From Spirochaetia bacterium (lineage in GTDB: Bacteria > Spirochaetota > Spirochaetia > SZUA-6 > Bin103): 64,000 bases of DNA. The stretch lies in assembly GCA_965208575.1 (NCBI GenBank), contig CBDBOV010000004.1, forward strand, positions 512,001 to 576,000. Reading direction: 5' to 3'. The notes beneath the pieces were generated by a model that saw only the letters and a program-made list of their open reading frames with translations, did not search any database and was not told the DNA's origin. Every line of letters begins with the position of its first letter. Position 1 is the first letter of the stretch. Shown piece after piece: positions 12,519-51,807 of this stretch. The position numbers and the translations under genes were made by a program.

Positions 12519-12708
12519 ACGTTCCTCCGTATGTGGATTCTCGAGAGTATTGCGTAGCGGCTTGCCGCTCCCTGGCTACTCTCGCGCCCGCAACGCAGGC
12601 GGCCAGACAGAGTCGAATGGGTGACGCGCGCGGCGTGTGACTCAGCGGGTGCATACCCGGCTCACGCCGCGCGCGCGTGCGGTTCTTTGAGTATCATTCG
12701 AGCCTCCT
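12519..12708 (-). promoter_or_regulatory. Conserved structured SBP leader, copy 1
   Basis: SD, uORF and three hairpins, shared by all five SBP genes. Confidence 0.75.
12662..12697 (-). CDS. Putative leader peptide MILKEPHARAA, copy 1
   Basis: AGGAGG-5nt-ATG ATA CTC AAA GAA CCG CAC GCG CGC GCG GCG TGA. Confidence 0.65.
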   Translation of the reverse strand: MILKEPHARAA

Positions 12709-12860
12709 GTGCGCCGGTAAAAACCGGCAAGGTGTTGTGAATGGAAGAGTCATACGTCGAAGGGTTAGCGACCCACGGCGGCTCCGAGTCATGCGCCGCC
12801 GCCCGCGAGGGCGGGGGTGAAGCGTTGACAGGGGTACGTGCGGGCCGGGTATCGAGCCGC
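12709..12860 (+). mobile_element. Group II intron remnant (5' part of domain I only)
   Basis: Starts GTGCGCCGG; matches the intron 5' ends at 24286, 29280(-) and 51808. Confidence 0.8.
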
Positions 12861-13119
12861 CACGCGTGGCGGTGGTCTGAGCAGCAGTGAGTCTGAATGG
12901 CCGCCAACGCCGGCGGTGGGTTTTGCGCGCAGTTAGTCGCGGGCGGGGATGCGGGACGGTTGCGGTCGCCTGGAAGGACGCGGGCGGCCAGCATGCCGGT
13001 TTGGCGATGGACCGAGCGGGCGCCACCGATAGCTACGGCGGTGGTGAAGGCGACGGTGTGCGCGCTTTCGCGTACGGGGCGATCAGCCCGAGCGGTTAGT
13101 TGTTCCTCGGTTTCTCGGT

Positions 13120-13150
13120 TTGAAAAAGTTGGGGGGGGGGGGGGTATGAT
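13120..13150 (+). promoter_or_regulatory. Candidate promoter with poly-G spacer
   Basis: TTGAAA-aagtt-G14-TATGAT (19-nt spacer); same at 25700-25730, variant at 52476-52506. Confidence 0.45.
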
Positions 13151-13234
13151 GCACCGGTCGCGTCACAGCGAACCGGTCACTGCGCTGACTGTCATCAAGG
13201 CGCTTCATCGGCATCCGTCGACCCCAAGCCAAGT

Positions 13235-13263
13235 ATGATAGCGTGGGCGCGGCGCACTGTCAA
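13235..13263 (-). promoter_or_regulatory. sigma70-type promoter in repeat unit A, facing cassette 1
   Basis: TTGACA-17nt-TATCAT on the - strand. Confidence 0.65.
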
Positions 13264-13638
13264 CGACTCGGAACTCACCAAATCCGGCCGTTCCGGACGC
13301 CCGCCAGCGTCGCCGCCACCGGAGGTGGTGACGTTGAGGTGACCGCCAACGGGCGACTGCGCTGACTGTCATCATGGCGCGTCATCATCGATCCGTCGAA
13401 CCCCAGGCGAGGCAAGCTTGCTGTGGGCGCGGGCACCCTGTCATTAGGGCCGACCCGTGGGACCCGTGCGTGCGCGGCGGACCGGCAGCCCCGTGGTGTC
13501 ACGCCGGATGCGCCCACCCGTGGCTCCGTCCTGGCCCCATGGGTGTGCATGCGCCGTCGGCTGCTCCGGGAGGCGCGCCCGGAACGCGCCCGACCAGGTC
13601 CACGAGCGTCGGGCTGGGTATGGGCGTGAGCTCACCCG

Positions 13639-13929
13639 TCAGCCCGAAGCAGCGCCTGGGCACCGCGTCACCGCAGACCGAGTCGCCGAAGTGTACTGAG
13701 TTAGGTGGTCCCGTAGGGCACGGTCTATGAGCAGTTCGCCGGCAAGCTCGAGCACCTCCTTGGCCTGCCGGCGGGACACCGAGGGGAAGGAATCGAGGAA
13801 CTTGTCCAGGCTGTCGCCGGCTTCGAGATGGTCCCACAGACTCTGGACGGGTACCCGTGTGCCGGCGAATACGGGCGTTCCTGACATGATCTCTGAGTCC
13901 TGGATAACCAAGCCGGAGAGGCTACGCAT
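13639..13929 (-). CDS. DUF433 family antitoxin-like protein (C-terminus runs into repeat)
   Basis: EIMSGTPVFAGTRVPVQSLWDHLEAGDSLDKFLDSFPSV. Confidence 0.75.
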   Translation of the reverse strand: MRSLSGLVIQDSEIMSGTPVFAGTRVPVQSLWDHLEAGDSLDKFLDSFPSVSRRQAKEVLELAGELLIDRALRDHLTQYTSATRSAVTRCPGAASG

Positions 13930-14200
13930 CTGTGCTGGCTCCCTTGCTACGAGGATAAGGCAATCTCGGTGTTGGTGGAAGAAGAACGTTGACCGCTCTG
14001 AGGTTTCAGATCCACCGCACGGGAACAGCTCGCGTGGACGCGTTGCGCGTGGCGGCGAAGACGCCGCATGCGGTGTGGTCAAGCTGACCGCTCTCCAGGC
14101 TGGCGCGCGGCCGAACCGTTTGCCGGTCTCGCCAGCTGCCGAGCAAATGGATATTTGAATACTGGGACCGGATCGATGGGCGATCGGATCGTTGCCTCTA

Positions 14201-14234
14201 TTGACAGAGCAAAGACCTATTTGTACGTTGTACA
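14201..14234 (+). promoter_or_regulatory. sigma70 promoter/operator of phd-vapC (probably leaderless mRNA)
   Basis: TTGACA-17-TACGTT with overlapping TGTAC..GTACA palindrome; ATG 8 nt after the -10 and no SD. Confidence 0.65.
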
Positions 14235-14236
14235 TT

Positions 14237-14497
14237 ATGAAACGCGTCAAAGCGTCGGAAGCGCGCACGCAGTGGTTCCGGTTGCTGGACGAGGTAGCAG
14301 CCGGTGAGGTGGTGGTGGTGGAGCGGCGTGGCCGGCAGATCGTGTTACGGCGCGAGGATCCGGCTGCGTCGGCGGCATCAGAGCCCGTTCCCGACTACAC
14401 AGAGCTGCTCAAGGTACCCGACGCGGACCAAGCCGATGCCTGGGGATGGGAGTGGGCGGCTGATGGTGAGGCCCTGCGGCTCACCGATCAGCCGTGA
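14237..14497 (+). CDS. Phd/YefM-like antitoxin
   Basis: MKRVKASEARTQWFRLLDEVAAGEVVVVERRG; overlaps the PIN gene (GTGA). Confidence 0.8.
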   Translation: MKRVKASEARTQWFRLLDEVAAGEVVVVERRGRQIVLRREDPAASAASEPVPDYTELLKVPDADQADAWGWEWAADGEALRLTDQP

Positions 14498-14868
14498 CGG
14501 TGCTTCTCGACACCCACTTTGTGATCTGGATCCTCACCGACTCGAGCCGACTCCGGAAGTATCGATGGATCGAGAGACATCGGCCGTGGGGCGTATCGCC
14601 GGTATCACTTCTCGAGCTTCAGTTTCTGTCGGAGGTCGGACGTATCAGTCTCAACACGTCACTGTTCTTCGCAGCCCTTGCTACGGACGCGAGGTTCGTC
14701 GTCGACGATCCACCTCTGTACTCAATCGTGCGCCACGCGTTGACCCTGAAATGGACGCGAGATCCGTTCGATCGCCTGCTTGCTGCGCACAGCGCCTCCC
14801 GGCGAGTGCCGCTGTGTACGGCTGACGCAACTCTGAGACGTCATCACTCACTTATCGCCCAGGAGTGA
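14494..14868 (+). CDS. PIN-domain (VapC) toxin
   Basis: VLLDTH, SPVSLLE, RDPFDRLLAA, TAD. Confidence 0.88.
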   Translation: MTVLLDTHFVIWILTDSSRLRKYRWIERHRPWGVSPVSLLELQFLSEVGRISLNTSLFFAALATDARFVVDDPPLYSIVRHALTLKWTRDPFDRLLAAHSASRRVPLCTADATLRRHHSLIAQE

Positions 14869-15438
14869 CTCACCGCTGAGCGATGCCCTGCGGTCTTTCG
14901 CCACCGGCGCTACCCACAGGAGAGTCACGGGCACGCACGTTGCGGGCCTGCCCCACGCGGCATCAGCGAGTCGTCGCCGTTCGCGAGCTTGCGGCTGGGC
15001 AGTGGCGAGCAGGCGGCCAGGCAGTGCCGGACCGCAACAGCGCCGAGGCGTTCGTATAGCAATGAGATAATTGCAGCCGGACCCCTGAACCCCGTATTTG
15101 AACACACATACCCTGTTTCGAGTGTAGCAAAACGTGCCGCTGCTTAGATCCTCAACCACCTGGTAAGAACCGGTCGAGCACCGCCGGGACTGTCAGTCAC
15201 CGTCAGTCACCTCCGAGTGGTTGACAGGCTGGCCGCGTCCATAGCAAGCTGGCTCGTCTGGGGTTCGACGGATCGGTGATGAGGCGCCATGACGACAGTC
15301 GGCGCTGGCGGGCGGCCGGAGGCGCCGGAGTGCGCGCGCCAAGAACTTGACTCAGACTGGCCGTCCGCGTTGACGGACACGCCCGCGGTTGCGGGCATGA
15401 GAGCCGGTCGCGATGAAGTGCAATCTTCATGCTGCCTG

Positions 15439-15447
15439 TGATATACT
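15439..15447 (+). promoter_or_regulatory. Extended -10 promoter
   Basis: TG-A-TATACT upstream of the GGAGG RBS and the NIPSNAP gene. Confidence 0.5.
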
Positions 15448-15473
15448 ATGATAGATAGTGGAGGATACCACCT

Positions 15474-16115: not shown

Positions 16116-16200
16116 TCTGGGGCTTCATTACTTCATTAGAGCATAACGAAGTCACGATTCCAGCTCACACGTACCGGGCATCTGGGAAGGGAGGCAGCAG

Positions 16201-17163: not shown

Positions 17164-17202
17164 TAGTGACAAAATAGTGAAGGGCAGCAAGAGGATAACA
17201 CA

Positions 17203-18054: not shown

Positions 18055-18083
18055 TGCAAACAACCAAACATGGAGGTAACACT

Positions 18084-19103: not shown

Positions 19104-19192
19104 GTGGGTCGCCGAGCTGGGGAGAATCTACGACCCGGACGGCAATATGCTCGTCGTGAACGAGCCGCGGAAAGCTGATACGGTGCGCGCAC

Positions 19193-29470: not shown

Positions 29471-31261
29471 ATGAACATTGTAAGAATTAGAATGACCTTC
29501 GCGTTTGCGTTGGTCCTGATTCTGAGCGCAACCGGCCTGTGGGCCGCCGGCGCAGAAGAGGCGCCGGCAGCCGCTGCCGACAAGAAGTACGTTACCGACC
29601 CCTCCACCGGCAAGGTGGTGACCGCGCCAGAGTACGGCGGGACAATAACCTACGCCAAAGCAGGAGAGCCGCCGAATCCTGACTACATGGTCTCTGCTCA
29701 CGGTCATGGTGCCTTTACCTCTGGCGTTTTAGGGAGGCTGGTAACCGCGGACTGGGCAACGCCCAGAGACAAACATGACTTCGTGTTTCACAACGTTCCA
29801 ACTAACACGATAGGGGGTCTGGCTGAAAGCTGGTCGCAGCCCGACCCACTGACTTATATCGTCAAAGTCCGCCAGGGCGTTCACTGGCACGACAAGGCAC
29901 CGATGAACGGTCGCGAGCTGACTGCCGATGATATCGAGTTCAACTATCACCGTATCTTGGGCCTTGGCAGCGGTTTCACCGAACGTAGTGAACGTGCTAG
30001 TAGCTGGAAGGGTATGCAATTTGAATCGATAACGGCCACCGACAACTGGACGGTTGTTTTTGAGCTAAAGGAGCTAAACCTCCGTGCGCTGGCTGTTATC
30101 CTCGACGACTGGAGTACTGCGATATATCCCCCCGAGGTAATCAGGGAACACGGCGACGCGACCGACTGGCGCAACCTGGTCGGCACCGGACCCTGGATGC
30201 TGACTGACTACGTCGAGGGCAGCTCTATCACCTGGGAAAAGAATCCTGACTACTGGGGCTTCGACGAAAAATACCCGCAGAACCGGCTGCCCTATATTGA
30301 CCGGTTAAGGGCACTGATTATGCCAGAGGCAGCGACACGCCTAGCGGCACTGCGCACGGGTGGGGTTGATTACATGGGTCTGATCGGGGGAACTCAAATG
30401 ACGAGTCTCGACCAGATAAGGAGCCTCCAGCGGACCAACCCCGAACTCGTGTGGTGGCCAATTTACAATCGGTCGGATAATGCGTTTGGTATGAACGTTC
30501 AGTTGCCTCCCTTCGACGACATCAGGGTGCGCAAAGCTATGCAAATGGCAATAAACCTCGAGGAAATTAACAACGCCTATTATGGAGGTACTGCAGATGT
30601 GATACCTCAGGGGCCTCTTACCGTGATGATGACAGAGATTGTCACCCACTTTGAAGATTGGCCCGAAGATGTCAAGAAGGTCTTTGACTACGACCCGGAA
30701 GGTGCCGAAGCGTTGCTTGATGAGGCCGGATATCCTCGCGGCGCGGACGGCATTAGATTTAAGACCGAGTTGCTGCACAGCGAGGCGTTCGATGTAAACT
30801 ATCTAGAATTAGTCGCTTCATACTGGAATAAGATTGGCGTTGATGTAGAGATTGACCTAGCGCCAAGAGCTGAAATTGTTGCTAGAAGTCGTGAGCGGGA
30901 TTTCGAAATGAAAGGTGCGAACGCGGCCCAGAAGTGGTTCCCAATGGTAATGCTAAATAACCTTACGTCGGGAATGCTATGGAACTCGTCCAATGTCGAC
31001 GACCCAGCTTATGACGCCATGTATGAAGCCGCCGGAGCCGCTACCACCCTCGAGGAGCAGAACAGGATAGCTGGAGAGATGAATCAGTATGCAATAGAGA
31101 AGTTCTGGACGATATGGGGTCCCATGCCCCCAAAGTTTCAGCCGACCCAGCCGTGGGTTAAAGGTTTTAACGGTGAATTCGCAATCGGAACCGGTCAACT
31201 ACACCAAGTCTTCGCCCGACTGTGGATTGATAGTGAGCTGAAGGAAGCAATGGGTCATTAG
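29471..31261 (+). CDS. ABC family-5 SBP, cassette 3
   Basis: Same motifs as SBP1; GGAG RBS before ATG 29471. Confidence 0.93.
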   Translation: MNIVRIRMTFAFALVLILSATGLWAAGAEEAPAAAADKKYVTDPSTGKVVTAPEYGGTITYAKAGEPPNPDYMVSAHGHGAFTSGVLGRLVTADWATPRDKHDFVFHNVPTNTIGGLAESWSQPDPLTYIVKVRQGVHWHDKAPMNGRELTADDIEFNYHRILGLGSGFTERSERASSWKGMQFESITATDNWTVVFELKELNLRALAVILDDWSTAIYPPEVIREHGDATDWRNLVGTGPWMLTDYVEGSSITWEKNPDYWGFDEKYPQNRLPYIDRLRALIMPEAATRLAALRTGGVDYMGLIGGTQMTSLDQIRSLQRTNPELVWWPIYNRSDNAFGMNVQLPPFDDIRVRKAMQMAINLEEINNAYYGGTADVIPQGPLTVMMTEIVTHFEDWPEDVKKVFDYDPEGAEALLDEAGYPRGADGIRFKTELLHSEAFDVNYLELVASYWNKIGVDVEIDLAPRAEIVARSRERDFEMKGANAAQKWFPMVMLNNLTSGMLWNSSNVDDPAYDAMYEAAGAATTLEEQNRIAGEMNQYAIEKFWTIWGPMPPKFQPTQPWVKGFNGEFAIGTGQLHQVFARLWIDSELKEAMGH

Positions 31262-34375: not shown

Positions 34376-35209
34376 ATGCTCATGAACAGTACACCGCTCA
34401 AGACCCTGGGGCCCCAGGCGGCGAAGTTGTTGACGGCGCTCCACGAACGGAGCCGTGCTGTTTTCCGCCTCGAGGATGTCCGGGACATCACGGGTCTCTC
34501 CGAAACCTCCGCGAGGAGCTTCGCCCGCAAGCTCGTGGACCGGGGTGTGGCGGCCCGGCTCAAGTCCGGTCTCTACGTACTGGTCCCCTTCGAGCTGGGA
34601 AGGGAGCGGCACTACCTGGGAAACCCTCTCGTCGTCGCCCGGGAGATCATGCACGGGGAGGACTACTACCTCTCGCACGCCACCGCCATGGAGATCCACG
34701 GCATGACGACCCAGCCCCAACTGGTAGTCAAGGTCAGCACCCTGAAGCCCCGGCGATCCCTGACCGCGCTGGGCGTGGAATTCCGGTTCGTTTGCTGCCG
34801 GCACAAGCACCTCTTCGGGCTCACTGACCACTGGGCGACCAAGCAGGAGAAAGTGCGCGTGAGCGACCTGGAGAGGACGATTATCGACGGACTCAAGCAG
34901 CCCGAGCATTGCGGCGGGCTGACCGAGGTCGCCAAGGGCCTTTGGATGCGGCGCGAGGACGTGAAGGTCGACCGGCTTATCCAGTACGCCAAGCGGATCG
35001 GTGTCGGCGCCGTCGTGCGCCGGCTGGGGTTCCTGCTGGAGACCTACGAGATAGCGGCGCCGCCGGATCTGGACGGTGTTCGCGCCGGCTTGACGGCGAC
35101 CTACGTCCGCCTCGACCCGGTCCTTCCGGCCGAGGGGAAACACCTGCGCCGCTGGCGCCTTCAACTCAACGTCGACCCCCAAGAGCTCCGCGCCGTCGTG
35201 AGGACCTTA
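34376..35209 (+). CDS. AbiEi antitoxin, copy 2 (stop TGA->TTA, reads into truncated toxin to 35395)
   Basis: Near-identical to 3149..3982. Confidence 0.78.
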
Positions 35210-35212
35210 TCC

Positions 35213-35607
35213 ATGATCGCGCAGCGCGATCTCTCGCTTCTTTCCAACCGACTCGCCCAGCGGGGAGGCCGGCGTATCCCGGAGACCGTCCTGGAGCGCG
35301 ACTACTGCCTCTCGTGGCTTCTGGTCGGGCTGTCCCGCAACCCGCTGCGGGAGCGCCTGGCGTTCAAGGGCGGGACCGCGCTCAAGGCCACGTGAATCTG
35401 TCCGACTTGGTCAATCCCGTGGCGCGGAAGCTGGAGTTCCGGGGGTTGACACTGGCGCAGGTGGGCAAAGAGTTCACCGCCAAGGAGGAAAGCTACAAGA
35501 AGCTGTGGCAGGTCCGCCTCGCGGCGCAGATGGCCGAGCTCCCCGAGTTCAACGCGGTCTACCGCGAGGTCCGGCGCGCCCTCCGGCAGGGAGGCCTCAG
35601 CGGATAA
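35213..35607 (+). pseudogene. AbiEii toxin, copy 2, with ~445-bp internal deletion
   Basis: Junction ctcaag|gccacgtg at 35386 removes the equivalent of 4160-4604, including RFSEDLDF. Confidence 0.85.
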
Positions 35608-39610: not shown

Positions 39611-39614
39611 AGCT

Positions 39615-40150
39615 ATGCTACATCACGTCACTCGATACCAAAGAGGACGCCCTCGAGGTCGTCGGCGGCAAGGGCCGCTCGTTGGCCAAGTTGGCGAACG
39701 CCGGCTTCCCGGTGCCTGGCGAGTTTCAGGTAACCACCGCGGCGTATCGCAGCTTTGTCGCTGACAACGAGCTGCAGGCACGCATCGTCGCGTTGGCCAG
39801 GCCGGCGGTCGTCGCTGGAAGAGCCTCGTTTGAGCAGTCGTCGGCCGCCATCGGGCAGTTGTTTGCCGACACCGAGATCTCGGCCGAGATGAGCGCTGCG
39901 ATTCGCGAGGCCTATGGCGCCCTGGAGGGCGGCGCCGTGGCGGGCACGCCGGCACTGGCGGTGCGCTCGTCGGCGAACGCCGAAGACCTGCCGGGTCTTT
40001 CCTTCGCTGGCCAGCAGGAGACGTTTCTCAACGTCACCGGCGCCGAGGCCGTGGTGGCTGCCGTCAAGAACTGCTGGGCCTCGCTGTGGACCGCGCAGGC
40101 CATCAGCTACCGGCATCAGAACGGGATCGGCCAGGAGTCCGTGGCTATGG
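39615..40150 (+). pseudogene. PEP/pyruvate-binding (PPDK_N) domain fragment
   Basis: VGGKGRSL, AVRSSANAEDL..SFAGQQETFLNV, CWASLW; truncated by a repeat unit. Confidence 0.8.
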
Positions 40151-40235
40151 CCTGGGGTTCGACGGATCGATGATGACGCGCCATGACGACAGTCAGCGCA
40201 GTGGTGGCCGGTGATGTTCGGTGACGTCCGAGTCG

Positions 40236-40386
40236 TTGACAGGCTGGTCGCGCCCACGCTAGCATGCCTCGCCTGGGGCGACGGATGCCGATGAAGCGCC
40301 ATGATGACAGTCAGCGCAGTGGCCGGTTGGCGGTGACGCAACGCGGTGGGTCGCGCTTGACACGGATTTGGGCCGGCCTCTACACT
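40236..40386 (+). promoter_or_regulatory. Tandem sigma70 promoters upstream of cassette 4
   Basis: TTGACA-18-TAGCAT (40236-40265, in repeat unit) and TTGACA-18-TACACT (40357-40386). Confidence 0.6.
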
Positions 40387-40630
40387 CGTCCGCAAATGGG
40401 CACCGACAGTATCCAGCCCGCTACCGACTACCGACTACCGACTACCTAACCGCGCGGAAGCCAGCCGCTCGGCACCGGTGCTGACCGCGGCACCATTGAT
40501 CCGCGCGGCACACAGCCGTGCGTGTGGCGGCGGACCGCGTCGGCCGCAACCTCCACCGGTCTACATCAACCGGCGTTGCCGGGACTTCAGAAGAGAGGGG
40601 CACATCTGCGCCCGACCGAGGGGGTGCAAA

Positions 40631-40666
40631 ATGATACTCAAAGAGCCGCACGCGCGCGCGGCGTGA
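40631..40666 (+). CDS. Putative leader peptide MILKEPHARAA, copy 4 (no intron)
   Basis: GAGGGGGTGCAAA-ATG ATA CTC AAA GAG CCG CAC GCG CGC GCG GCG TGA. Confidence 0.65.
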   Translation: MILKEPHARAA

Positions 40667-40809
40667 GCCCGGGTGAACCCGGATGAGTCACACGCCCCGC
40701 GCTTTCAGTATTCGACTCAGGCTGGCCGTCCGCGTTGCGGGCGCGATTGTAGCCAGGGAGCGGCAAGTCGCTCCGCAATACTCTCAAAAAAACGTTCAAG
40801 GAAGAAACG

Positions 40810-42597
40810 ATGAAAATACTATTCACAAGGACCTTCGCGGTTGCGTTGGTCCTGATTCTGAGCGCGACCGGCCTCTGGGCCGCTGCCGCAGAAGAGGAGC
40901 CGGCAGCCGCTGCCGACAAGAAGTATGTGACCGACCCCAGCACCGGCAAGGTGGTGGTGGCACCACAGTATGGCGGGACAATCAGCATGGTGATGTCTAC
41001 GATCCCTCCGAATATTGACCCCTATATCGTGTACAACGCGGGATCGGTTATCTCGGGCGTTAATGAGAAGCTAGGCGTGACGGACTGGGCATTAGATAGG
41101 GACGTATTTGGCTATAAAACAATTTACACCCCTGAATTTGCCATAAGAGGGCATCTGGCTGAAAGCTGGGAGCAACCCGACCCACTAACTGGTATCGTCC
41201 ACATCCGCAAGGGCGTTTACTGGCATAATAAGGCACCGATGAACGGTCGGGAACTGACTGCCGATGATATCGTATATAGCTTTGAGCGTGTATTGGGACT
41301 GGGCGACTTCACCGAAGCTGGCCCTGGCGCAGCTGTTAACCCCGTAATCCGTAATGTTGAATCGGTAGAAGCCGCCGACAAGTATACGTTGGTAATTAAG
41401 CTGAAGGAGCTCAGCCTCGATACGCTGAAGCAAATCCTCATTGATGCTCGCGCTTATATATTGGCCCCCGAGGTAATCGAGCAATACGGCGACGTTACGG
41501 ATTGGAGGAATGTGGTCGGCACCGGGCCGTTTGAGCTGACTGACTGGGTCGAGGGCAGCTCCTATACCTATGTCAAGAATCCTGACTACTGGGGCTACGA
41601 CGAAAAATACCCGGAGAACCGCCTGCCCTATGTTGACGAGTTTAGGAAACTGATTTCGAAGGAAAAAGCGACAATTCTGGCGTTACTTCGCTCCGGTAAG
41701 GCTGATTACATCGGTAATGCGGGCGGCTCTCAACTAACTAGTGTCGACGCGGCAATGAGCCTCCAGCGGACCAACCCCGAGATCAACCTGTGGCCATATT
41801 CAACCGCGGCCAGAACGGCTTTTACTTTTAACGTACAGATACCACCCTGGAACGACATCAGGGTGCGCCACGCACTGCAGATGGCACTGGACCTTGAGAC
41901 AATTAACGCGACCTACTTCCAGGGTTGGGCAGATCCACGACCTGGGGGGCGTCAAGGGATAGGGCTTATCGGGTATCGCTTCCCGTATGAAGAGTGGCCC
42001 GAAGAGATCAAGCAATACTACAGGTATGACCCGGAAGGGGCCGAGAAGCTCCTTGACGAGGCTGGATACCCGCGCGGCGCCGACGGCATTCGATTCAAGA
42101 CCCTCTATGAGCACTACGAGGCCGCCGATTTAGACTATTACCAGATAGCGATGGAATACTTGCGTGCCATTGGCATTGATGTAGAGGTGAAGGTAATTGA
42201 CCGAGCTACTGCAATCGCTTATATACACGAACATAAGCAGCAAGGTATGATACACGCCGATAACAACTCCGACTATGCAAGTCCCTTCGCACTATGGGCC
42301 GCTCACTCGACCAATCTATGGGGCTTCGCCAACGTCCAGGACCCGGTTTTTGACGCCATGTATGACGCCGTCGTAGCCGCTACCACCGTTGAGGAGCAGA
42401 TGAGGCTGGCTATAGAGGCTGATAAGTACACCATAGAGAAGCACTGGTACATCGGGGGTCCGCGAGCTCCACATTTTAATGTGTCGCAGCCGTGGATCAT
42501 AGGTTATAACGGTGAAATTGACGGAAACATAGACGGGATTCAAAAATTCGCCCGCCTCTGGATTGACCATGAGCTGAAGGAAGCAATGGGTTATTAG
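40810..42597 (+). CDS. ABC family-5 SBP, cassette 4
   Basis: Same motifs as SBP1 and SBP3. Confidence 0.93.
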   Translation: MKILFTRTFAVALVLILSATGLWAAAAEEEPAAAADKKYVTDPSTGKVVVAPQYGGTISMVMSTIPPNIDPYIVYNAGSVISGVNEKLGVTDWALDRDVFGYKTIYTPEFAIRGHLAESWEQPDPLTGIVHIRKGVYWHNKAPMNGRELTADDIVYSFERVLGLGDFTEAGPGAAVNPVIRNVESVEAADKYTLVIKLKELSLDTLKQILIDARAYILAPEVIEQYGDVTDWRNVVGTGPFELTDWVEGSSYTYVKNPDYWGYDEKYPENRLPYVDEFRKLISKEKATILALLRSGKADYIGNAGGSQLTSVDAAMSLQRTNPEINLWPYSTAARTAFTFNVQIPPWNDIRVRHALQMALDLETINATYFQGWADPRPGGRQGIGLIGYRFPYEEWPEEIKQYYRYDPEGAEKLLDEAGYPRGADGIRFKTLYEHYEAADLDYYQIAMEYLRAIGIDVEVKVIDRATAIAYIHEHKQQGMIHADNNSDYASPFALWAAHSTNLWGFANVQDPVFDAMYDAVVAATTVEEQMRLAIEADKYTIEKHWYIGGPRAPHFNVSQPWIIGYNGEIDGNIDGIQKFARLWIDHELKEAMGY

Positions 42598-43149
42598 GGG
42601 TTTCACCCCTTGTGGCTTGTGACCTTAGGGAAGGAAAAAGGGAGCTGGGGGGTTCAAACCTCCCAGTTCCCGATACTCCTCAAATAGTGGGCTCTTCAGG
42701 AAATCGTGTGGGTAACTCCCTGGCGGGCGCCGTCAGAATCGGATCGTGGGTGACGGGGTGGATGTCCCATTCGGGGGCCCAGTCGTAAATCTGTACCCTT
42801 AATGACGGGGGGAATCAAGGGGGACACCCCCTTGAACCCCCGTTTCAAAGGGGTTTCACCCCTCTGGACTCCCCAAAACGGTGAGAGGCCAGTTTTTTTG
42901 GCAGGGGTCATTCGCACCTTAGAGAGTGCCGCGCCCTTCAACTTCGTTCCCTTCAACTACGTTCAGGGTAAACAGGACAAGCCCTTCAGTGGAAGGCCGG
43001 AAAGACGTGGAAGGTGGATTCCGGCTTTCGCCGGAATGACGGGTGAAAGAGGGCAACGGGATTGCCACGGTCGTCCAAAGGCGACCTCGCAATGACAAAA
43101 GAGGGTTGGCAATGACGGAGGAAATCGCAATGACAAGGAGTAATGTCAC

Positions 43150-44118
43150 ATGAGAGCCTATATCGTCAGGCGGTTATTGCTGTTAATCCCCACCTTGTTT
43201 ATATTGACCATCCTGGTCTTTCTCTCGGTCCGCTTCATCCCGGGCGATGTAATAGACGCAATGGTGGCTGAGATGGCAATGACAGGGTTCGCAGGACCGG
43301 GGGCGATTGACCGTGAAGCTCTTGAGCGTGCGCTGGGATTAGACGTGCCGGTTCACGTGCAGTATGGACGCTGGTTGGGAGGTATCTTACTACACGGCAC
43401 CCTTGGCGACTCACTGCTTGGCCAATGGTCGGTGGAGGAGAGGATAATAGGTAGATTGCCGGTGACCATTGAGCTTGGTTTGTTGTCAATCGTAATAGGG
43501 CTCCTGATAGCGCTGCCAGTCGGCATCTACTCGGCGATTCGCCAGGATGCAATCGCCGACTACCTGGGGCGCTCCATCGCCATCATCGGCCTGGCAACGC
43601 CTAACTTCTGGCTGGCACTTATGGTCATGCTCTTCCCGGCAATCTGGTGGGGCTGGTCGCCACCGCTGGAGCTGGTTCCTTTCACGGAAGACCCGCTGGG
43701 GAATCTCGGGGTGTTCATCATTCCCAGCCTGATTCTGGGGACGGCCATGGCTGCAGCCACAATGCGAATGACGCGCACCACGATGCTGGAGGTGCTCAGG
43801 CAGGACTATATCAGGACGGCCTGGTCAAAGGGTCTCAAGGAGAGGGTGGTTATTATGAGACACGCTATCAAAAATGCCCTCATCCCAGTAGTTACCCTGG
43901 TAGGCCTGCAGTTGCCTCTCCTGGTAGGCGGCTCGGTTATCATGGAGAACATATTTAACCTGCCGGGGGTAGGTCGTCTCATGCTGCTTGCCCTCGATGA
44001 CAGAGACTATCCGGTGGTCTCCGGAATAAACCTGATTTTTGCCACCGCGGTTATCGGGGGCAATCTAATGATAGACCTGATTTATCCTTATTTGGACGCC
44101 AGGGTCCGCTATGGATAA
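43150..44118 (+). CDS. ABC permease (OppB/DppB-like), cassette 4
   Basis: Close paralog of the other B genes. Confidence 0.93.
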   Translation: MRAYIVRRLLLLIPTLFILTILVFLSVRFIPGDVIDAMVAEMAMTGFAGPGAIDREALERALGLDVPVHVQYGRWLGGILLHGTLGDSLLGQWSVEERIIGRLPVTIELGLLSIVIGLLIALPVGIYSAIRQDAIADYLGRSIAIIGLATPNFWLALMVMLFPAIWWGWSPPLELVPFTEDPLGNLGVFIIPSLILGTAMAAATMRMTRTTMLEVLRQDYIRTAWSKGLKERVVIMRHAIKNALIPVVTLVGLQLPLLVGGSVIMENIFNLPGVGRLMLLALDDRDYPVVSGINLIFATAVIGGNLMIDLIYPYLDARVRYG

Positions 44119-44142: not shown

Positions 44143-45123
44143 ATGAGTGATGCTATACGGATACCATCAGCAGTAAGTGAGCCAAAGAGACGTGCCGGGC
44201 TGGCTGATTTCTTTGTCAGGCTGTGGACGGAGAAGCCACTAGGTACTATCAGCGGGATTATAGTGTTGATATTGATTTTGGTGGCTATCTTCGCCGATGT
44301 TCTGGCCCCCTATGGCTATACTGAAATGCACCTGGTAGACAGGCTGCAGGGCGCATCAGCCCGGTATCTCCTGGGTACCGACCAGATAGGGCGAGACTTC
44401 TTGAGCCGCCTTATCTTCGGGGCTCGTCTTTCCATACTTGTCGGTCTGGCGGCGACCGCTCTCAATGTTGTGGTGGCTGTCCTGATAGGCGGCATTTCAG
44501 GATTCCTTGGCGGCAAATTGGACCTGGCTGTGCAGAGATTTGTCGATGCCTGGATGGCTTTCCCGGGACTGCTGCTGTTGTTAACCATAATGTCCATAGT
44601 GGGGCAGGGTGTTTTACAGATAATACTGGTCCTGGGGATAACCGGAGGCGTCGTCGGCTCAAGAGTAATCAGAGGCGCCGTTATCGGCATTAAAGAGAAT
44701 GTATATTTTCAGGCGGCAGAGGCGATTGGCTGCGCAAAATGGAGAACGCTTATCCGACATGTCCTGCCCAATATTATGCCTATCGTAATCATCATATTCA
44801 GCATCAACATCGGGGGGGTGATTATGAGTGAGGCCTCTCTGAACTTCCTGGGATTCGGTCTGTCCCCGGACATTCCTAGCTGGGGTACTCTGCTCAGCTG
44901 GGAAGGACGTCTGTACATGGAGATGGCGCCATGGCTGGCTCTCTGGCCTGGTCTTTGCCTGACTATTGTAGTTTACAGTCTAAACATGTTCGGCGACGCC
45001 GTGCGCGACCTTCTTGACCCCAGGCTGAAGGGCGGTGTGGGGCATCCCGGTGCTTATGGCGCGAAGTCTGTTAAGAAAGCCAGGAAGAAGCTGGAGGCCA
45101 GGGCTAATAAGCAATTTTTCTGA
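44143..45123 (+). CDS. ABC permease (OppC/DppC-like), cassette 4
   Basis: OppC motifs; preceded by a long G run at ~44118-44132. Confidence 0.92.
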   Translation: MSDAIRIPSAVSEPKRRAGLADFFVRLWTEKPLGTISGIIVLILILVAIFADVLAPYGYTEMHLVDRLQGASARYLLGTDQIGRDFLSRLIFGARLSILVGLAATALNVVVAVLIGGISGFLGGKLDLAVQRFVDAWMAFPGLLLLLTIMSIVGQGVLQIILVLGITGGVVGSRVIRGAVIGIKENVYFQAAEAIGCAKWRTLIRHVLPNIMPIVIIIFSINIGGVIMSEASLNFLGFGLSPDIPSWGTLLSWEGRLYMEMAPWLALWPGLCLTIVVYSLNMFGDAVRDLLDPRLKGGVGHPGAYGAKSVKKARKKLEARANKQFF

Positions 45124-45815: not shown

Positions 45816-45901
45816 CTTGACACCATAAAGGACATTCGGTATCACTGACATCGGAATTTGCCGATATAGACCTTTTTAATCTGATCAACCGAGGTGTCGA
45901 T

Positions 45902-47203
45902 ATGCTTGATAATAACACCGCAACAGAGATCCTGGAAGCTGTAGATAAGAACTTTGATGAACAGATCGATTTTACCGCCGAGCTGGTAAAATTCCCGTCT
46001 GTCAGGGGGCAGGAGCACACCGCCCAGGATTTCATGGCGCGGGAAATGGCCGCCAGAGGCCTGGCCGTGGACCGGTGGAAAATCAAGGTCGGTGATATTG
46101 AAAACATGACGGGGTATTCACCGGTCAATGTCTCCTACGAGAAGGCCTACAATGTGGTGGGGACGCATCGCTCCTCGACATCCAGGGGACGGTCGCTGAT
46201 CCTCAACGGCCACATCGATGTGGTTCCCACCGGCCCTGTTTCCGGGTGGAAATATCCCCCCTTTGAACCTGTCATTGACGACGGGTGGATGTACGGTCGC
46301 GGCGCGGGTGATATGAAAGCCGGACTGGTCTCCTGCCTGTTTGCTCTCGAGGCGTTAAAACGAGCCGGGCTGGCGCCCGGAGCAGACGTATTCCTTCAAT
46401 CCGTTATCGAGGAGGAGCCTACCGGAAACGGGACCCTGGCCTGCCTGCAGCGCGGCTATCGGGCAGACGCCTTTCTGGACACCGAACCGATGGGTGAAAC
46501 CCTGCTGCGGGCTCACATGGGCATCATGTGGTTTCAGGTCCAGATAAGCGGCGATCCACAACACGCATCCATTGCCCAGACCGGCGGCGCGAATGCCATT
46601 GAGAATGCTTTTTACCTGGTTGGCGAGCTTAAGAAACTGGAAAAATCCTGGAACGAATCCAAGAGTAATTATCCGGAATTCGCAGATCATCCTCATCCCG
46701 TTCACTTCAATCTCGGGAAAATCGAGGGCGGAGATTGGGTTTCCAGCGTGCCGGCCTGGTGCAATTTCGACATGCGTATCGGATTTTATCCCGGCTGGGA
46801 CCTGGGCCAGATCCGTTCCGACATCGAATCCTGCGTGCAGGAGGCTGCTCAAAAGCATCCGTTTCTCAAGGACCATCCGCCCCGGGTCGTGTTCCACGGA
46901 CACCAGACCGAGGGGTATGTCCTGAAAAACGCCCGGGAAGCCGAGACCGTGCTGGGCAGAAGCCACAAGCGGGTATTCGAAAAGGACCTGGTTGAAATCT
47001 GCATCCCCGGGGCTACGGATGCGCGGATATATGCTTTATACGCGGACACGCCCTCGCTGGTTTACGGCCCGAGAAGCCGCTCCATCCACGGCTTCGATGA
47101 AGCGGTGGAGATCGAATCCATCAGAAAAACCACCGGGGCCATTGCGCTCTTCATCGCCGACTGGTGCGGTGTGGAGGAAAAAAATATGGTGACAGGCACC
47201 TGA
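45902..47203 (+). CDS. M20 ArgE/DapE-family amidohydrolase
   Basis: LILNGHIDVVP, GRGAGDMKAG, IEEE, DAR, IHGFDE. Confidence 0.9.
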   Translation: MLDNNTATEILEAVDKNFDEQIDFTAELVKFPSVRGQEHTAQDFMAREMAARGLAVDRWKIKVGDIENMTGYSPVNVSYEKAYNVVGTHRSSTSRGRSLILNGHIDVVPTGPVSGWKYPPFEPVIDDGWMYGRGAGDMKAGLVSCLFALEALKRAGLAPGADVFLQSVIEEEPTGNGTLACLQRGYRADAFLDTEPMGETLLRAHMGIMWFQVQISGDPQHASIAQTGGANAIENAFYLVGELKKLEKSWNESKSNYPEFADHPHPVHFNLGKIEGGDWVSSVPAWCNFDMRIGFYPGWDLGQIRSDIESCVQEAAQKHPFLKDHPPRVVFHGHQTEGYVLKNAREAETVLGRSHKRVFEKDLVEICIPGATDARIYALYADTPSLVYGPRSRSIHGFDEAVEIESIRKTTGAIALFIADWCGVEEKNMVTGT

Positions 47204-47496
47204 TTTTTCGCTTGAAGCGAAAAAAGCCGCTGCAATCGGCAGGGTTGCGGCGGCCTGGTTTGCCACCCATAACGTTGACGGGCCGTGTTAACACTATAAG
47301 GCCCAGATACGCATTCATCTTTCTTTAACGTAGAATGAGCGGCGTCACGGCGATTTATGTTTTTCTTAAGCATCTTTGTGTCAGCCGGTCTCGGTTCGAT
47401 AAGGGTCGCTTCCACGCCATATGAACTACCCTCCTCGTTTGTCACCCGGTCACTCCGAATTTGTAAGCACAATAGGCACCGTCATTAGAAAACTTA

Positions 47497-48456: not shown

Positions 48457-48474
48457 GTTCTTGATTGTCCCCCT

Positions 48475-49485
48475 TTATCTATAACGGACCCTGGGGTCAA
48501 AAAAAGGATACATCAGGTCGATCACTAGATTGATCCCCATAACCGCGGTGCCGAAAAACAGGTTTATTCCGGAGACCACCGGGTAGTCTCGGTCATTGAG
48601 GGCGTTCACCATGAGACGACCTAGCCCCGGCAGGGCAAATATGTTCTCCATGATAACCGAGCCACCTACCAGGAGAGGCAACTGCATGCCAATGAGGGTA
48701 ACTACCGGGATGAATGCATTCTTGAGGACGTGTCTCATAACAACCACCCTCTCCTTCAGACCTTTGGACCATGCCGTCCTGATATAGTCCTGCCTGAGCA
48801 CCTCCAGCATCGCGGTACGCGTCAGCCGCATTGTGGCTGCAGAATAGGCCGTCCCCAGAATCAGGCTGGGAATGATGAACATCCCCAGATTCCCCAGCGG
48901 GTCTTCCGTGAAAGAAATCAGCTCCATCGGGGGCGCCCAGCCCCACCAGATTGCCGGGAAAATCATGACCATCAGGGCCAGCCAGAAGTTAGGCGTTGCC
49001 AGGCCGATGATGGCGATGGAGCGCCCGGCGTAGTCGGCGGCCGTATCCTGGCGAATCGCCGAGTAGATGCCGACGGGCAGCGCTATCACTAGCCCGATTA
49101 CGATTGCCATGGCGCCAAGCTGAACGGTTACCGGCAATCTACCTAATATCTCCTCCTCTATCGGCAAAGCGCTGCCCCACATTGATTCGCCAAGGGTGCC
49201 GTGCAGGAGACCTTTAAAGTGGGACTCACCGGTAACCCAGTCAGGGGTCGGCAACACTCCTATCCAGCGTCCATATTGCACGTGAACAGGCACATCTAGT
49301 CCCAGATAACGCTCAAGAGCTTCACGGTTTATATTGCCATAGCCAAAAACAGACGTTTCTAGCCTCATCACCATTAAGTCTATTGTATCGCCCGGGATGA
49401 AGCGGACGGTGAGAAAGACCAGGAGCGTCAAAATCCACAAGGTGGGGATTATCAGCAATAACCGCCTGATGATATAGGCTCTCAT
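48475..49485 (-). CDS. ABC permease (OppB/DppB-like), cassette 5
   Basis: Close paralog of the other B genes. Confidence 0.93.
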   Translation of the reverse strand: MRAYIIRRLLLIIPTLWILTLLVFLTVRFIPGDTIDLMVMRLETSVFGYGNINREALERYLGLDVPVHVQYGRWIGVLPTPDWVTGESHFKGLLHGTLGESMWGSALPIEEEILGRLPVTVQLGAMAIVIGLVIALPVGIYSAIRQDTAADYAGRSIAIIGLATPNFWLALMVMIFPAIWWGWAPPMELISFTEDPLGNLGMFIIPSLILGTAYSAATMRLTRTAMLEVLRQDYIRTAWSKGLKERVVVMRHVLKNAFIPVVTLIGMQLPLLVGGSVIMENIFALPGLGRLMVNALNDRDYPVVSGINLFFGTAVMGINLVIDLMYPFFDPRVRYR

Positions 49486-49765
49486 GTGATACTCCTCATT
49501 TCACTTTCCCCCGTGATTACCACCCCTCTCTCGTCATTCCCATTTCCCCCGTCATTCCCGCGAATGCGGGAATCCACCTCCCCCGTCATTCCGCCGGAAG
49601 GCGGAATCCAGAGTAATTTCAAATGGTTGCGTTTTCTGGATTCCGGGTCTCCGCCCGGAATGACAGTAAGAAAGCGCCTCGCAATAACATCGTGTGTGGG
49701 GAGCCGGGAGGCTTGAGCCCCCCAGCTCCCTCTTTCCCTGAGCTAAGCCACAAGGGGTGAAACCC

Positions 49766-51613
49766 CTAATGACCCATTGCTTCCTTCAGCTCCTGGTCGA
49801 TCCAGAGGCGGGCGGCGATGGTATATTCAACTTGGTTAGGGAACAGTCTCAATTCTCCGTTATAACCTTTGACCCACGGCTGGGTCACGCTCGTCCACGG
49901 TGTTACATTACCAGCAAATACGACCCAGTGCCTCTCTATTGCGTACATATTCAGCTCTCTCACCAAAAGCAATTGCTCTTCTTCCGTGCTTACCTTTTCG
50001 GCGGCTGCCAACATGGCGTCATAAACCGGATCGTTCACATTGGCGGAGTTAACATCAGCACCAGTCTTGTACGTAGCCATCATGTTCCAAGGCGGGAACG
50101 TCCCCGTGTCGGCTATTAGGGGGGACCAAATCATGTCATGATCTCTAGCTTTCCTTCTACTAACCACCTCATCACTTGTCACTACATCAACCTCTACATC
50201 AACGCCAATGTCACGATAGTATGTAGCGGCTAGTAATTCTATATAGTCCGGATCGAATCTATCACCCCAGGTCACTGAGGCCTTGAACCTGATGCCGTCG
50301 GCCCCGCGCGGATACCCCGCCTCATCAAGGAGCTTCTCGGCCCCTGCCGGGTCATACCTATAGCCTTTCTTGACCTCGTCGGGCCATTCTTCGAATGGGG
50401 TGCCAGCCAGTGGGACATCGTTGGCAATCAGTCCCTGAGGTCCCGACATTCCCCACCCTTTGAAGTAGGTCTCGTTCAGTGTCTCAAGGTCCAGTGCCAT
50501 CTGCATTGCCTTGCGCACCCGGATGTCATCAAAGGGTGGCCTCTGCGTGTTCATGCCAATACCACGGTCCCCCCGTACAATATGCTCCCATATCACGATT
50601 TCGGGGTTGGTCCGCTGCATGCTCTCCACCTTGTCGATACTGTTGAGCGGCGGAGGATAGGAGAGCACGGTGCCGCTGTAATCGATCTTACCCGTGCGCA
50701 GTGCCGCGATTAGTGTTGCTGGGTCTGGCAAAACCTTGACCCTTAACTCGTCAACATAGGGCAAGCGGTTGCCCGGATATTTTTCGTCGTCGCTCCAGTA
50801 GTCAGGATTCTTGGTAAGGGTCATAGAGCTGTCCTCGACAAAGTCAGTCAGCATCCAGGGTCCGGTGCCGACCACGTTCCTCCAATCCTTCATGTCACCG
50901 TATTCCTCGATTACCTCCCGTGCAACAATATAGTGAACTACATTGCCGATGATAGACCGCAGCGCACGGGCGTCTGGCCGCGTCAGCTTAAAAACAACCG
51001 TCCATTTGTCCGTTGCTGTTATCGATTCGATCGGCATCGTATCCCACCCATCATACCAGAGGCCGGGGGTAGGTTCGGCTTCACTGAACTCGGTCCCTGT
51101 CAATACATTTCCCAAATTGCGGTGAAAGGTATATTCTACATCATCGGCAGTCAGCTCCCGACCGTTCACCGGTGGTTTATCGTGGAAGTGAACGCCCTGG
51201 CGGATGTGGATGGTATAGGTGAGGCCGTCCTCGGAAAAGTCCCAGCTTTCCGCCAGCGCCCCTCTTAAGCCAAATAGAGGAGAGGCAAAATTTGACCAGT
51301 CAAATTCGTCCCTATCTATTGCCCAGTCGCCGATGCTTAGCGGCTCTAGAACACCATGGAGTATGGTGAGGGTGGCCCAGGCACTGGCAAAATACGGGTC
51401 AGCATTCGGAGGAAAGCCATGCTGCTTGGATATGGTCAATGTCCCGCCATACTCTGGCGCGGACACTGCCTTACCGGTAGTGGGGTCGGTCACATACTTC
51501 TTGTCGGCAGCGGCTGCCGGCGCGTCTTCGTCTGCCCCAGTGGCCCACAGGCCGGTTGCGCTCAGAATCACGACCAACGCAATCGCGAAGGTCCTTGCAA
51601 AAATGATTTTCAT
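49766..51613 (-). CDS. ABC family-5 SBP, cassette 5
   Basis: Same motifs as the other SBPs. Confidence 0.93.
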   Translation of the reverse strand: MKIIFARTFAIALVVILSATGLWATGADEDAPAAAADKKYVTDPTTGKAVSAPEYGGTLTISKQHGFPPNADPYFASAWATLTILHGVLEPLSIGDWAIDRDEFDWSNFASPLFGLRGALAESWDFSEDGLTYTIHIRQGVHFHDKPPVNGRELTADDVEYTFHRNLGNVLTGTEFSEAEPTPGLWYDGWDTMPIESITATDKWTVVFKLTRPDARALRSIIGNVVHYIVAREVIEEYGDMKDWRNVVGTGPWMLTDFVEDSSMTLTKNPDYWSDDEKYPGNRLPYVDELRVKVLPDPATLIAALRTGKIDYSGTVLSYPPPLNSIDKVESMQRTNPEIVIWEHIVRGDRGIGMNTQRPPFDDIRVRKAMQMALDLETLNETYFKGWGMSGPQGLIANDVPLAGTPFEEWPDEVKKGYRYDPAGAEKLLDEAGYPRGADGIRFKASVTWGDRFDPDYIELLAATYYRDIGVDVEVDVVTSDEVVSRRKARDHDMIWSPLIADTGTFPPWNMMATYKTGADVNSANVNDPVYDAMLAAAEKVSTEEEQLLLVRELNMYAIERHWVVFAGNVTPWTSVTQPWVKGYNGELRLFPNQVEYTIAARLWIDQELKEAMGH

Positions 51614-51760
51614 TGTTTTTGTCCATCATTTTGATCTTGAGAGTATTACGGAGCGGCCTGCCGCTCCCTGGCTACTCTCGCGCCCGCAACGCAGACGGCC
51701 GGCCAGACAGAGTCAGATTTGTGAAGCGCGCGGCGTGTGACTCACCGGGTTCACCCCGGC

Positions 51761-51796
51761 TCACGCCGCGCGCGCGTGCGGTTCTTTGAGTATCAT
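51761..51796 (-). CDS. Putative leader peptide MILKEPHARAA, copy 5
   Basis: AAGAGG-5nt-ATG..TGA. Confidence 0.65.
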   Translation of the reverse strand: MILKEPHARAA

Positions 51797-51807
51797 TCGA
51801 ACCTCTT

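Follow-up and report, generated by a model that had tools for sequence, protein, structure and literature searches.

The closest described relatives of the element analyzed here are bacterial leaders in which a short upstream open reading frame (uORF) is combined with RNA structure. The element is a leader of ~180 nt that is found five times in a window of 64,000 nt (the whole stretch of DNA that was analyzed) from a Spirochaetia bacterium (GTDB SZUA-6; Bin103; GCA_965208575.1, contig CBDBOV010000004.1, positions 512,001-576,000), each time upstream of a gene for a family-5 solute-binding protein (SBP). We conclude that it is a genuine new cis-regulatory leader, for which a mechanism as a ribosome-controlled switch is plausible. 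As in the trp, his and pyrBI attenuators, the mgtA leader ORF mgtL and bmrB-bmrCD of B. subtilis, a transporter operon is preceded by a short leader ORF with its own Shine-Dalgarno (SD) sequence, whose 3' part overlaps one side of a stable hairpin, so that hairpin formation depends on the translating ribosome; the leader differs from these systems in having neither a regulatory codon run nor a U-tract terminator, nor an antiterminator that we could find. The tandem regulatory codons of a classical trp, his or leu attenuator are likewise absent, the uORF peptide MILKEPHARAA repeating only Ala codons within the hairpin arm, and no terminator with a competing antiterminator was detected (at least five T in 10 nt in 12 of the 96 tails that follow the hairpin).

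With the TnaC, SecM, ApdA/ApdP, SpeFL and Erm leaders the element shares a tiny peptide with few conserved residues (LKEP) that ends next to or in RNA structure. By eye, the uORF carries none of the arrest motifs characteristic of such leaders (RAGP/RAPP, W-x4-D...P-stop, IFVI), its C-terminal HARAA is not conserved as a peptide, and an exposure of the downstream ribosome-binding site (RBS) by stalling is not predicted (accessibility 0.45 vs. 0.47, see below). GcvB-type co-regulation also ties many SBP mRNAs of ATP-binding cassette (ABC) importers to one signal through a common motif in the 5' untranslated region. There the target is short and CA-rich, whereas the element shared here is structured and ~180 nt long, and no complementary trans RNA was found at ≤2 mismatches over 16 nt. 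T-boxes and c-di-GMP riboswitches resemble the element in that one structured leader family precedes dozens of genes per genome; our leader differs in belonging to no Rfam family, in being confined to one genus and in bearing a uORF. While uORF-leader attenuators occur one per operon type, each of the five species in which this leader is abundant has 33-85 copies in its genome. What sets the leader apart is its copy number, its construction from two modules and a range limited to a single genus of sponge-associated Spirochaetia. Strong SD-start pairs in leaders are also known from the E. coli topAI uORF and from a Sinorhizobium study of upstream RBSs (uRBS), which describes a strong upstream RBS that acts through ribosome occupancy (PMC13285730). 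Such leaders act by coupling to, or occluding, a nearby main RBS, whereas here the uORF ends ~140 nt before the SBP start and three hairpins lie in between.

Each copy consists of SD, uORF, hairpin P1, a junction, hairpin P2 and hairpin P3, followed by the SBP start. The window holds exactly five SBP_bac_5 genes; all five are preceded by the leader, as an earlier note on this DNA had claimed, and all five are followed by two permease genes. The uORFs have 12 codons (11 residues and stop; consensus ATG ATA CTS AAA GAN CCG CAC GCG CGY GCG GCG TGA) with a GGAGG-type SD 7-8 nt upstream, and they differ from each other in CTC/CTG, CGC/CGT and GAA/GAG/GAC. Five SD-preceded frames for MILK[E/D]PHARAA* (5/5), in which only synonymous or conservative changes occur next to a freely variable SD-ATG spacer, are what the note had reported, and the five-copy alignment confirmed it. 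Its assignment of the RAA-stop codons to the 5' arm of a long hairpin was also correct, since in copy 4 the last four codons and the stop (40664-40666) make up that arm of P1, which has a 12-bp GC stem. Both further hairpins were found again, with the C/U wobble and the G-C/G-U/A-U pair (GC in 19, GU in 13 and AU in 1 of 34 sequences, in the inner stem of P3), and only the outer P3 stem GAGAGUA/UACUCUC had been overlooked. Similarity to copy 4, the only one with a different upstream region, starts at the SD and extends for ~165 nt; it falls over 20-30 nt spanning the SBP RBS and first codons and recovers in the signal-peptide coding region. Chance as the source of the five copies is excluded, as they score 159-197 bits with a covariance model of the leader and the genome contains 63 nhmmer matches. 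No family was matched in Rfam, in line with the note's statement that no known motif was recognized: Rfam 15 gave only three RF02005 intron matches in the whole window, on the strand opposite to the leaders, and for copy 4 at E≤10 only osmY (13.1 bits) and Pseudomon-groES (12.4 bits), far below their cut-offs. Literature searched by peptide string and keywords returned nothing on the element or the peptide.

The 63 matches were obtained, after a first BLASTN search, in the organism's own genome (6.5 Mb, 67% GC). Linkage to SBP genes is strict: behind 60 of the 63, on the same strand and at a constant distance, lies a paralog of one ~600-aa family-5 SBP. Of the other three, one precedes a signal-peptide protein that is SBP-like but more distant, one is a truncated remnant and one a fragment of 41 nt. 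About 108 SBP paralog loci were counted in the genome (at 400 bits or more, 40-59% identity), roughly half of them with this leader. We searched further genomes with the covariance model (R1; 179 positions, 37 pairs). Matches were present in 8 of 24 genomes of the family, all of one genus, where seven of the ten other species carry 1, 2, 5, 33, 35, 43 and 85 copies, the highest number in a 4.9-Mb genome. Three congeners gave no R1 match (G002, with 81% completeness, G009 and G010), and the leader was found in none of 13 genomes of the sister genus (R1; BLAST likewise) and in none of 17 genomes from other families of the order (BLAST). A scan of 185,579 species genomes (one per GTDB species) for the exact pattern returned 21 stretches, in only three records of metagenome-assembled genomes (two titled Spirochaetia bacterium, one bacterium); this count is a lower bound, because the exact pattern catches only 25 matches in the own genome as compared to 63 by nhmmer. 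The leader stretch is also present in public runs, including sponge metatranscriptomes.

Some side observations concern these genes. The ~108 loci represent a very large expansion of one family-5 SBP clade, and the mature N-terminus of the SBP (..AEEEPAAAADKKYVTDPTTGKVVTAPEYGG) is unusually conserved (amino-acid identity ~0.7 vs. ~0.45 elsewhere). When the window operons other than those of copies 2 and 5 were checked by Pfam, they had the order SBP-permease-permease and no adjoining ATPase gene was found. A weak partial R1 match at window 15308-15400(+) (24.5 bits, model positions 39-173; nhmmer fragment 15332-15372) lies near intron fragments, has no SBP gene and is probably a remnant.

Identity between leader copies is ~85% and mosaic: by Fitch parsimony the conserved blocks have 0-4 changes per site, and at least 18 are counted in the loop of P1, where the junction begins and in the spacer of the SBP RBS. 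The SBP paralogs are old and their synonymous sites are near saturation, with third positions at shared residues agreeing by 0.44-0.79 along the whole gene and by 0.67-0.79 in the first 60 codons. Nor are the leaders grouped by genome, as 30 of 62 own-genome copies are nearest to one of 42 sampled copies from other species. Because the paralogs are old and the leaders do not cluster by genome, the leader is kept by purifying selection and not by gene conversion. Concerted evolution is thus excluded by paralog divergence, mosaic conservation and cross-species clustering together.

The covariation that would be expected of a functional RNA was found when 100 distinct sequences were aligned to the model. 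Paired cells made up 96.0% of the total, compared to 27-57% when the partners were slid by 1-3 columns, and double changes occurred at 24 of 37 pairs, vs. 5.9 +/- 1.8 in shuffles (0/500 reached 24) and 9-14 in the slid controls. The double changes are spread over all helices (P1 basal 9/15, P1 apical 3/3, P2 3/6, P3 outer 5/7 and P3 inner 4/6); the apical stem of P1 is deleted in 4 of 34 sequences. P2 is paired in 98.5% of cells and has C/U wobble at two positions (42 and 33 U-G cells, 0 A-C). Over the whole model 251 G-U cells stand against 45 A-C cells, and the ratio is 42:0, 33:0 and 31:1 at the three strongly polymorphic pairs. The large excess of G-U wobble over A-C points to a structured RNA of the SBP sense strand and speaks against both a palindrome that acts as DNA and an antisense RNA. 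A covarying sense-strand secondary structure, as in riboswitches and other structured cis-regulatory RNAs, is thereby present. Of the conserved junction motifs, GACUC is able to pair with GAGUC in the loop of P1 and CUGGCC with GCCAG in that of P3, with weak covariation: these pseudoknots (GAGUC x GACUC, CUGGC x GCCAG) and a further long-range helix of a type discussed below, are possible, almost invariant and affected by some mismatches. Single-sequence folding gave z = -0.12 for copy 4 and -4.73 for copy 3, and since z varies this much, thermodynamics alone is uninformative in such GC-rich sequence; from a plain 79-copy MAFFT alignment, RNAalifold brought out P1 and P2 only in part.

Two additional hairpins were noticed outside the leader proper. 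In the predicted folds of several copies, the SBP start region (12519-12542(-), 29454-29473(+) and equivalents) forms a small hairpin CAUACG-GAGGAA-CGUAUG, whose loop contains the SD and whose 3' arm contains the AUG; copy 3 has the compensated form CAUAGG/CCUAUG. P2 (CCCGC-GUU-GCGGG) shares its loop with a hairpin CCGGC-GUU-GCCGG (e.g. window 40571-40583), which is repeated 60-100 nt before some leaders and upstream of other SBP genes; 23 exact copies exist in the genome and 7 of these are within 300 nt of a leader.

The uORF was analyzed in 107 unique copies, 103 of which include the 5' part. An initiation codon is aligned in 89 of the 103 (75 ATG, 10 GTG, 4 TTG), and the G's of the SD are nearly invariant (G at -10 in 90/107, at -7 in 95/107). 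MILKEPHARAA itself is encoded by 39 copies, and most others are one or two residues off. Codons 3-6 lie outside any helix and evolve as coding sequence. Their parsimony changes per codon position (CTC 2/9/12, AAA 4/2/11, GAA 4/3/16, CCG 2/3/14) are almost all synonymous, and the four most variable of the 12 positions are the four third positions (1 arrangement in 495). The near restriction of changes in LKEP to third positions makes translation of the uORF likely. Divergent subfamilies retain the SD, the open frame and [L/R]-K-E-P despite a one-codon insertion, even before a 29%-identical SBP. With SD spacing, start, open frame and coding-type substitutions all as in translated uORFs, this frame is, judged by its sequence, probably translated, and would be so in vivo. 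Its codons are rare in the genome (AUA 4.8% of Ile, AAA 10% of Lys, GAA 24% of Glu, CUC 25% of Leu), and the same A/U-rich signature is found in the first codons of the SBP genes; this is consistent with a genuine site of initiation, or with slow decoding under selection.

The conserved peptide of the earlier note stands only in part. M-[IVT]-[LR]-K-E-P is kept, while codon 7 varies freely (His, Tyr, Trp, Leu, Arg). Codons 8-11 form the P1 arm and are for this reason fixed at every position, so that the RAA-stop end is held by the hairpin and is also where frameshifts fall. Frameshifts of -2 in the GC run affect ~8 copies, in which the frame either stops at the UGA of UGAGUCA or continues. P1 contains the end of the uORF in nearly all variants, at the canonical UGA, at a UAG at codon 7 or, after a -2 frameshift, at the UGA of UGAGUCA. 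Read-through of a bacterial selenocysteine insertion (SECIS) type was considered and rejected, as the UGA is 16 or 17 nt from UGAGUCA (five copies) and the apical stem is deleted in 4/34, so the frame is not kept.

Transcription was followed at copy 4, by aligning contigs of assembled metatranscriptomes from four studies to 39900-42700. RNA-library contigs run from unique upstream sequence (40421, 40489 and 40501) into the uORF (to 40597-40669), which places transcribed sequence 140-210 nt upstream, and the depths of these contigs are similar to those of coding-sequence pieces of the same runs. Further upstream, 39900-40087 was bare of RNA contigs in two runs and only sparsely covered in two others; 40370-40463 was bare in one run. 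These gaps are hints only. A consensus scan found TTGACA-18-TACACT as the sole sigma-70-like site in 40300-40900, and we regard it as a candidate promoter of the leader transcript (Table 1). A transcription start downstream of the uORF, which according to the earlier note would speak against its proposal, is on this evidence mildly disfavored at copy 4.

Table 1. Leader copies, parts of leader copy 4 and adjoining features, in window positions
Feature	Position	Strand	Remarks
Leader copy 1	12533..12712	-	uORF 12697-12662; before SBP 10704-12518(-); R1 189.7 bits
Leader copy 2	24087..24289	-	uORF 24274-24239; extra hairpin inserted before P2; before SBP 22291-24072(-); R1 159.4 bits
Leader copy 3	29277..29455	+	uORF 29292-29327, GAC at codon 5; before SBP 29471-31261(+); R1 194.2 bits
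Leader copy 4	40616..40795	+	SD, uORF, P1, junction, P2, P3; R1 192 bits; sole window copy without adjoining group II intron
Leader copy 5	51629..51811	-	uORF 51796-51761; before SBP 49766-51613(-); R1 196.8 bits
Promoter-like TTGACA-18-TACACT	40357..40386	+	~245 nt upstream of uORF copy 4; consensus scan, 1 site vs. 0.1 in shuffles
SD-like GGGGGT, uORF copy 4	40620..40625	+	G-run ends 7 nt before ATG; read directly
uORF copy 4, MILKEPHARAA*	40631..40666	+	third-position variation in codons 3-6
Hairpin P1, copy 4	40654..40702	+	12-bp GC basal stem 40654-40665 with 40691-40702; internal loop with UGAGUCA; apical CCCGG/CCGGG
Junction, copy 4	40703..40727	+	5' part AU-rich, variable; GACUC and CUGGCC conserved
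Hairpin P2, copy 4	40728..40742	+	GUCCGC-GUU-GCGGGC; general form GYCYGC-GUU-GCGGGC
Hairpin P3, copy 4	40745..40785	+	outer GAUUGUA (consensus GAGAGUA) with UACUCUC; inner GGAGCGG/UCGCUCC; internal loop GCCAGG
SBP gene 4 (SBP_bac_5)	40810..42597	+	Pfam; then permeases 43150-44118 and 44143-45123; M20 peptidase gene 45902-47203
Group II intron 5' part	24286..24542	+	opposite strand, abuts SD of leader copy 2; RF02005 179.7 bits at 24323-24542; not part of the leader

The reading that we favor, tentatively and at somewhat less than an even chance, is a lineage-specific bipartite cis-regulatory 5' leader of SBP-operon mRNAs in which translation of the uORF controls P1. The uORF and P1 would form module A, with a strong SD, a core M-[I/V]-[L/R]-K-E-P in rare A-rich codons and a 3' end with the stop buried in the 5' arm of P1, a very stable GC hairpin; P2 and the two-tiered P3 would form module B, which ends ~20 nt before the SBP RBS. 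Ribosomes would load on the uORF, and each elongating or terminating ribosome would have to melt P1. Because every ribosome must do so, P1 would be present only when the uORF is not translated. Whether it is folded or unfolded would then decide what becomes of the mRNA downstream, by way of pausing or premature termination, of processing, or of stability. In this manner ~60 importer operons would be tied in cis to one signal, presumably the translation status of the cell, and module B would supply a second input beside the SBP start, dependent on a trans factor.

Several observations weigh against this proposal. In 14 of 103 copies, which are lower-scoring ones, there is no ATG, GTG or TTG start and yet the hairpins are kept; P1-P3 are likewise retained in the 9 copies with a stop at codon 7 and the ~8 with a frameshift in the GC run. 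Because start-less, stopped and frameshifted copies keep P1-P3, the hairpins are independent of the full peptide. Frequent stops or frameshifts in the uORF were named by the earlier note as evidence that would refute it; both occur, in the copies just mentioned. Codons 3-6 keep their coding pattern. The modules also occur singly upstream of SBP genes, as SD-uORF-P1-P2 without P3 in 3 copies and as P2-P3 only in 4. The sequences are all from a single genus, many of the double changes occur only once and the alignment (A4) was fitted to the model structure. As for transcription, the RNA contigs carry neither strand nor 5' ends and concern copy 4 only, and in 4/5 window copies a group II intron lies directly upstream of the SD and may separate them from a promoter.

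The search for a regulatory output gave further points on this side. P1 is followed by an AU-rich tail (59% A+T), and because this stretch is not U-rich (32% T, 27% A; at least five U in 10 nt in only 12/96 tails), P1 is not a canonical intrinsic terminator. Sequestration of the SBP SD was rejected as well: when the uORF end and the 5' arm of P1 were forced open in 30 copies, in imitation of a ribosome at the stop codon, the predicted accessibility of the SBP start stayed unchanged (0.45 vs. 0.47). Pairing of the 5' half of the uORF (ACUCA/UACUC) with UGAGU or GAGUA was discarded, as changes in the CTC codon are uncompensated, and no supported alternative helix with the uORF region was found. 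For an antisense RNA acting in trans we looked for matches with ≤2 mismatches to 16-nt uORF and junction motifs, and none of 47 and none of 23 lay outside leaders; motifs of the P3 and P1 loops had only GC-rich near-matches there. Of the ribosome-controlled switch in the earlier note, the structured sense-strand leader and the coding pattern of codons 3-6 therefore stand, whereas a terminator or an SD-sequestering alternative fold that would tie the uORF to the SBP gene was not found.

The main rival, which we consider a serious but rather unlikely alternative, takes the folded RNA itself (P2-P3, perhaps pseudoknotted with the junction, with or without P1) as a sensor of a metabolite, an RNA-binding protein or a small RNA, with the uORF as an accessory that keeps ribosomes on the long 5' untranslated region, as protection from Rho or RNases, or serves as a ribosome landing pad. 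It would account for the nearly invariant junction and loop nucleotides, for the persistence of P1-P3 in start-less copies and for the 4 copies that have P2-P3 without uORF and P1; one of these lies directly behind a promoter-like site, TTGACA-16-TATGGT, at P2, and a second has no promoter-like site. A parallel is a second leader family found before the same group of SBP paralogs. We fetched 16 copies of this family 2 (loci L139-L154, e.g. C5:244790-245190) and aligned 13. They fold into a covarying, interleaved A..hairpin..B-A'..hairpin..B' pseudoknot, in which GCCGCCCUCGC pairs with GCGAGGGG..CGGC and this helix is interleaved with CGAGAGU/RCUCUCG. Pairing holds in 86.5% of cells vs. 38-52% when slid, and the 9 double-change cells were reached by 0/500 shuffles. 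None of the 16 leaders has an Rfam match at E≤1.

Family 2 shares the string GAGAGUAG..AGGGAGCGGCA..CUCUCGAA with P3 of the present leader (family 1), and module B is related to the pseudoknotted domain of family 2. P2-P3 is probably the older module. Family 2 often begins with AAGGAGG followed by an ORF of 1-4 codons, and with such mini-ORFs behind the SD peptide identity cannot matter there; because they are so short, it is the ribosome rather than the peptide that seems to matter. Families 1 and 2 both combine an upstream RBS with a structured domain that extends to just before the SBP RBS, so that this design recurs in the genome. SBP paralogs without the family 1 leader carry other upstream leaders, of at least two further types besides family 2. 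On the other side, a sensor of this kind leaves the third-position coding pattern of LKEP unexplained, as well as the location of the uORF stop always inside P1. No Rfam aptamer was matched, no antisense partner was found within the limits given above, no SD-sequestering platform is predicted, and the A-A' helix that would make family 1 a pseudoknot like family 2 is almost without covariation.

A bolder reading, which we hold to be doubtful, is that the leader belongs to a new class of regulators that sense translation. A nascent peptide of six residues (M-I-L-K-E-P), encoded by rare codons, would pause or arrest the ribosome at the foot of P1 and, together with a pseudoknot-capable P2-P3 that binds a global metabolite or protein, would turn a regulon in cis of 60-85 peptide or oligosaccharide importers on or off in a sponge symbiont. 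If true, the leader would take two inputs, ribosome and ligand, and no single genome would have a larger cis-regulatory system built from one family.

Improbable, in our estimate, is a P1 that acts as a processing or stability site, for instance for a double-strand-specific RNase, where cleavage would remove the uORF, leave P2-P3 as a protective 5' structure and set the half-life of the mRNA. The duplex of ~20 bp is suitable, and copies without module A begin at about P2, the 5' end that such cleavage would create, but the conservation of LKEP stays unexplained unless translation gates the cleavage, in which case this explanation merges with the favored one. Conservation at the DNA level, with the inverted repeats as operator or enhancer, ATACTC-type motifs as promoter elements of an SBP regulon and a fortuitous ORF, is very improbable. 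P1 is a long palindrome, and TTGACT with two ATACTC motifs resembles -35/-10 hexamers by eye; however, the 251:45 ratio of G-U to A-C is strand-specific and meaningless for duplex DNA, the uORF has a 3-nt periodicity, the consensus scan found no promoter-like site inside leader copy 4, and RNA-library contigs cover the uORF and upstream sequence. A sigma-54 promoter (TGGC-N-TTGC) was rejected as well, as the spacing is one too long for the consensus and varies with a 4-nt insertion. Scarcely credible is a functionless selfish or neutral repeat (a miniature inverted-repeat (MITE) or repetitive extragenic palindromic (REP)-like element, an intron-borne exon or a gene-conversion product), for although its copy number is high and group II intron ends adjoin leader copies at 7/14 RF02005 matches over cut-off, the leader does not occur independently of genes (60/63 before an SBP paralog, never solitary apart from two remnants), its orientation and distance to the SBP start are fixed, its conservation is mosaic, orthologous copies cluster across species, the paralogs are old and the adjoining introns arrived recently at an older site.

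The introns are arranged head-to-head with the leader at copies 1, 2, 3 and 5 and define its upstream edge in these 4/5 window copies. Sites of the RF02005 subfamily are 12746-12885(+), 24286-~26500(+), 51845-52034(+) and, on the minus strand, just upstream of 29277. The 5' sequence of the intron starts with GTGCG and abuts the reverse complement of the uORF start and SD (..GAGTATCAT-N6-CCTCCT, then across the boundary GTGCGCCGG..), where the exact 5' boundary is our best placement. Most copies are internally deleted, and only 24286-~26500 keeps a reverse transcriptase ORF (24415-25671); no Rfam match to intron domain V/VI was found in 24200-26700. The genome has 14 RF02005 matches over cut-off, and because 7 of these adjoin leader copies, homing to the antisense of the conserved RBS is suggested. 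Being 90-99% identical, the introns are recent arrivals at an older site, and they may represent a group II intron family that lands repeatedly on the strand opposite to a conserved ribosome-binding site present in many copies. Other genes in the window include an AbiEi-type antitoxin-like gene (34376-35395(+)), a sulfatase gene (53177-54595(-)) and a gene with FGE-sulfatase and BNR-repeat domains (56607-58676(+)).

Taken together, the leader looks like an undescribed device that regulates ~60 SBP paralogs alike. More than 250 variants in eight genomes provide a natural series for dissecting the cooperation of uORF and hairpin, and they contain a possible new short regulatory peptide (LKEP) and a possible new pseudoknotted RNA domain. 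If the proposed control of P1 by uORF translation fails, the element is still a well-defined RNA motif absent from Rfam 15. If it holds, one short leader would adjust some sixty importers together, without a dedicated transcription factor per operon, and would thereby offer a compact way to regulate a massively expanded paralog family in a host-associated bacterium.

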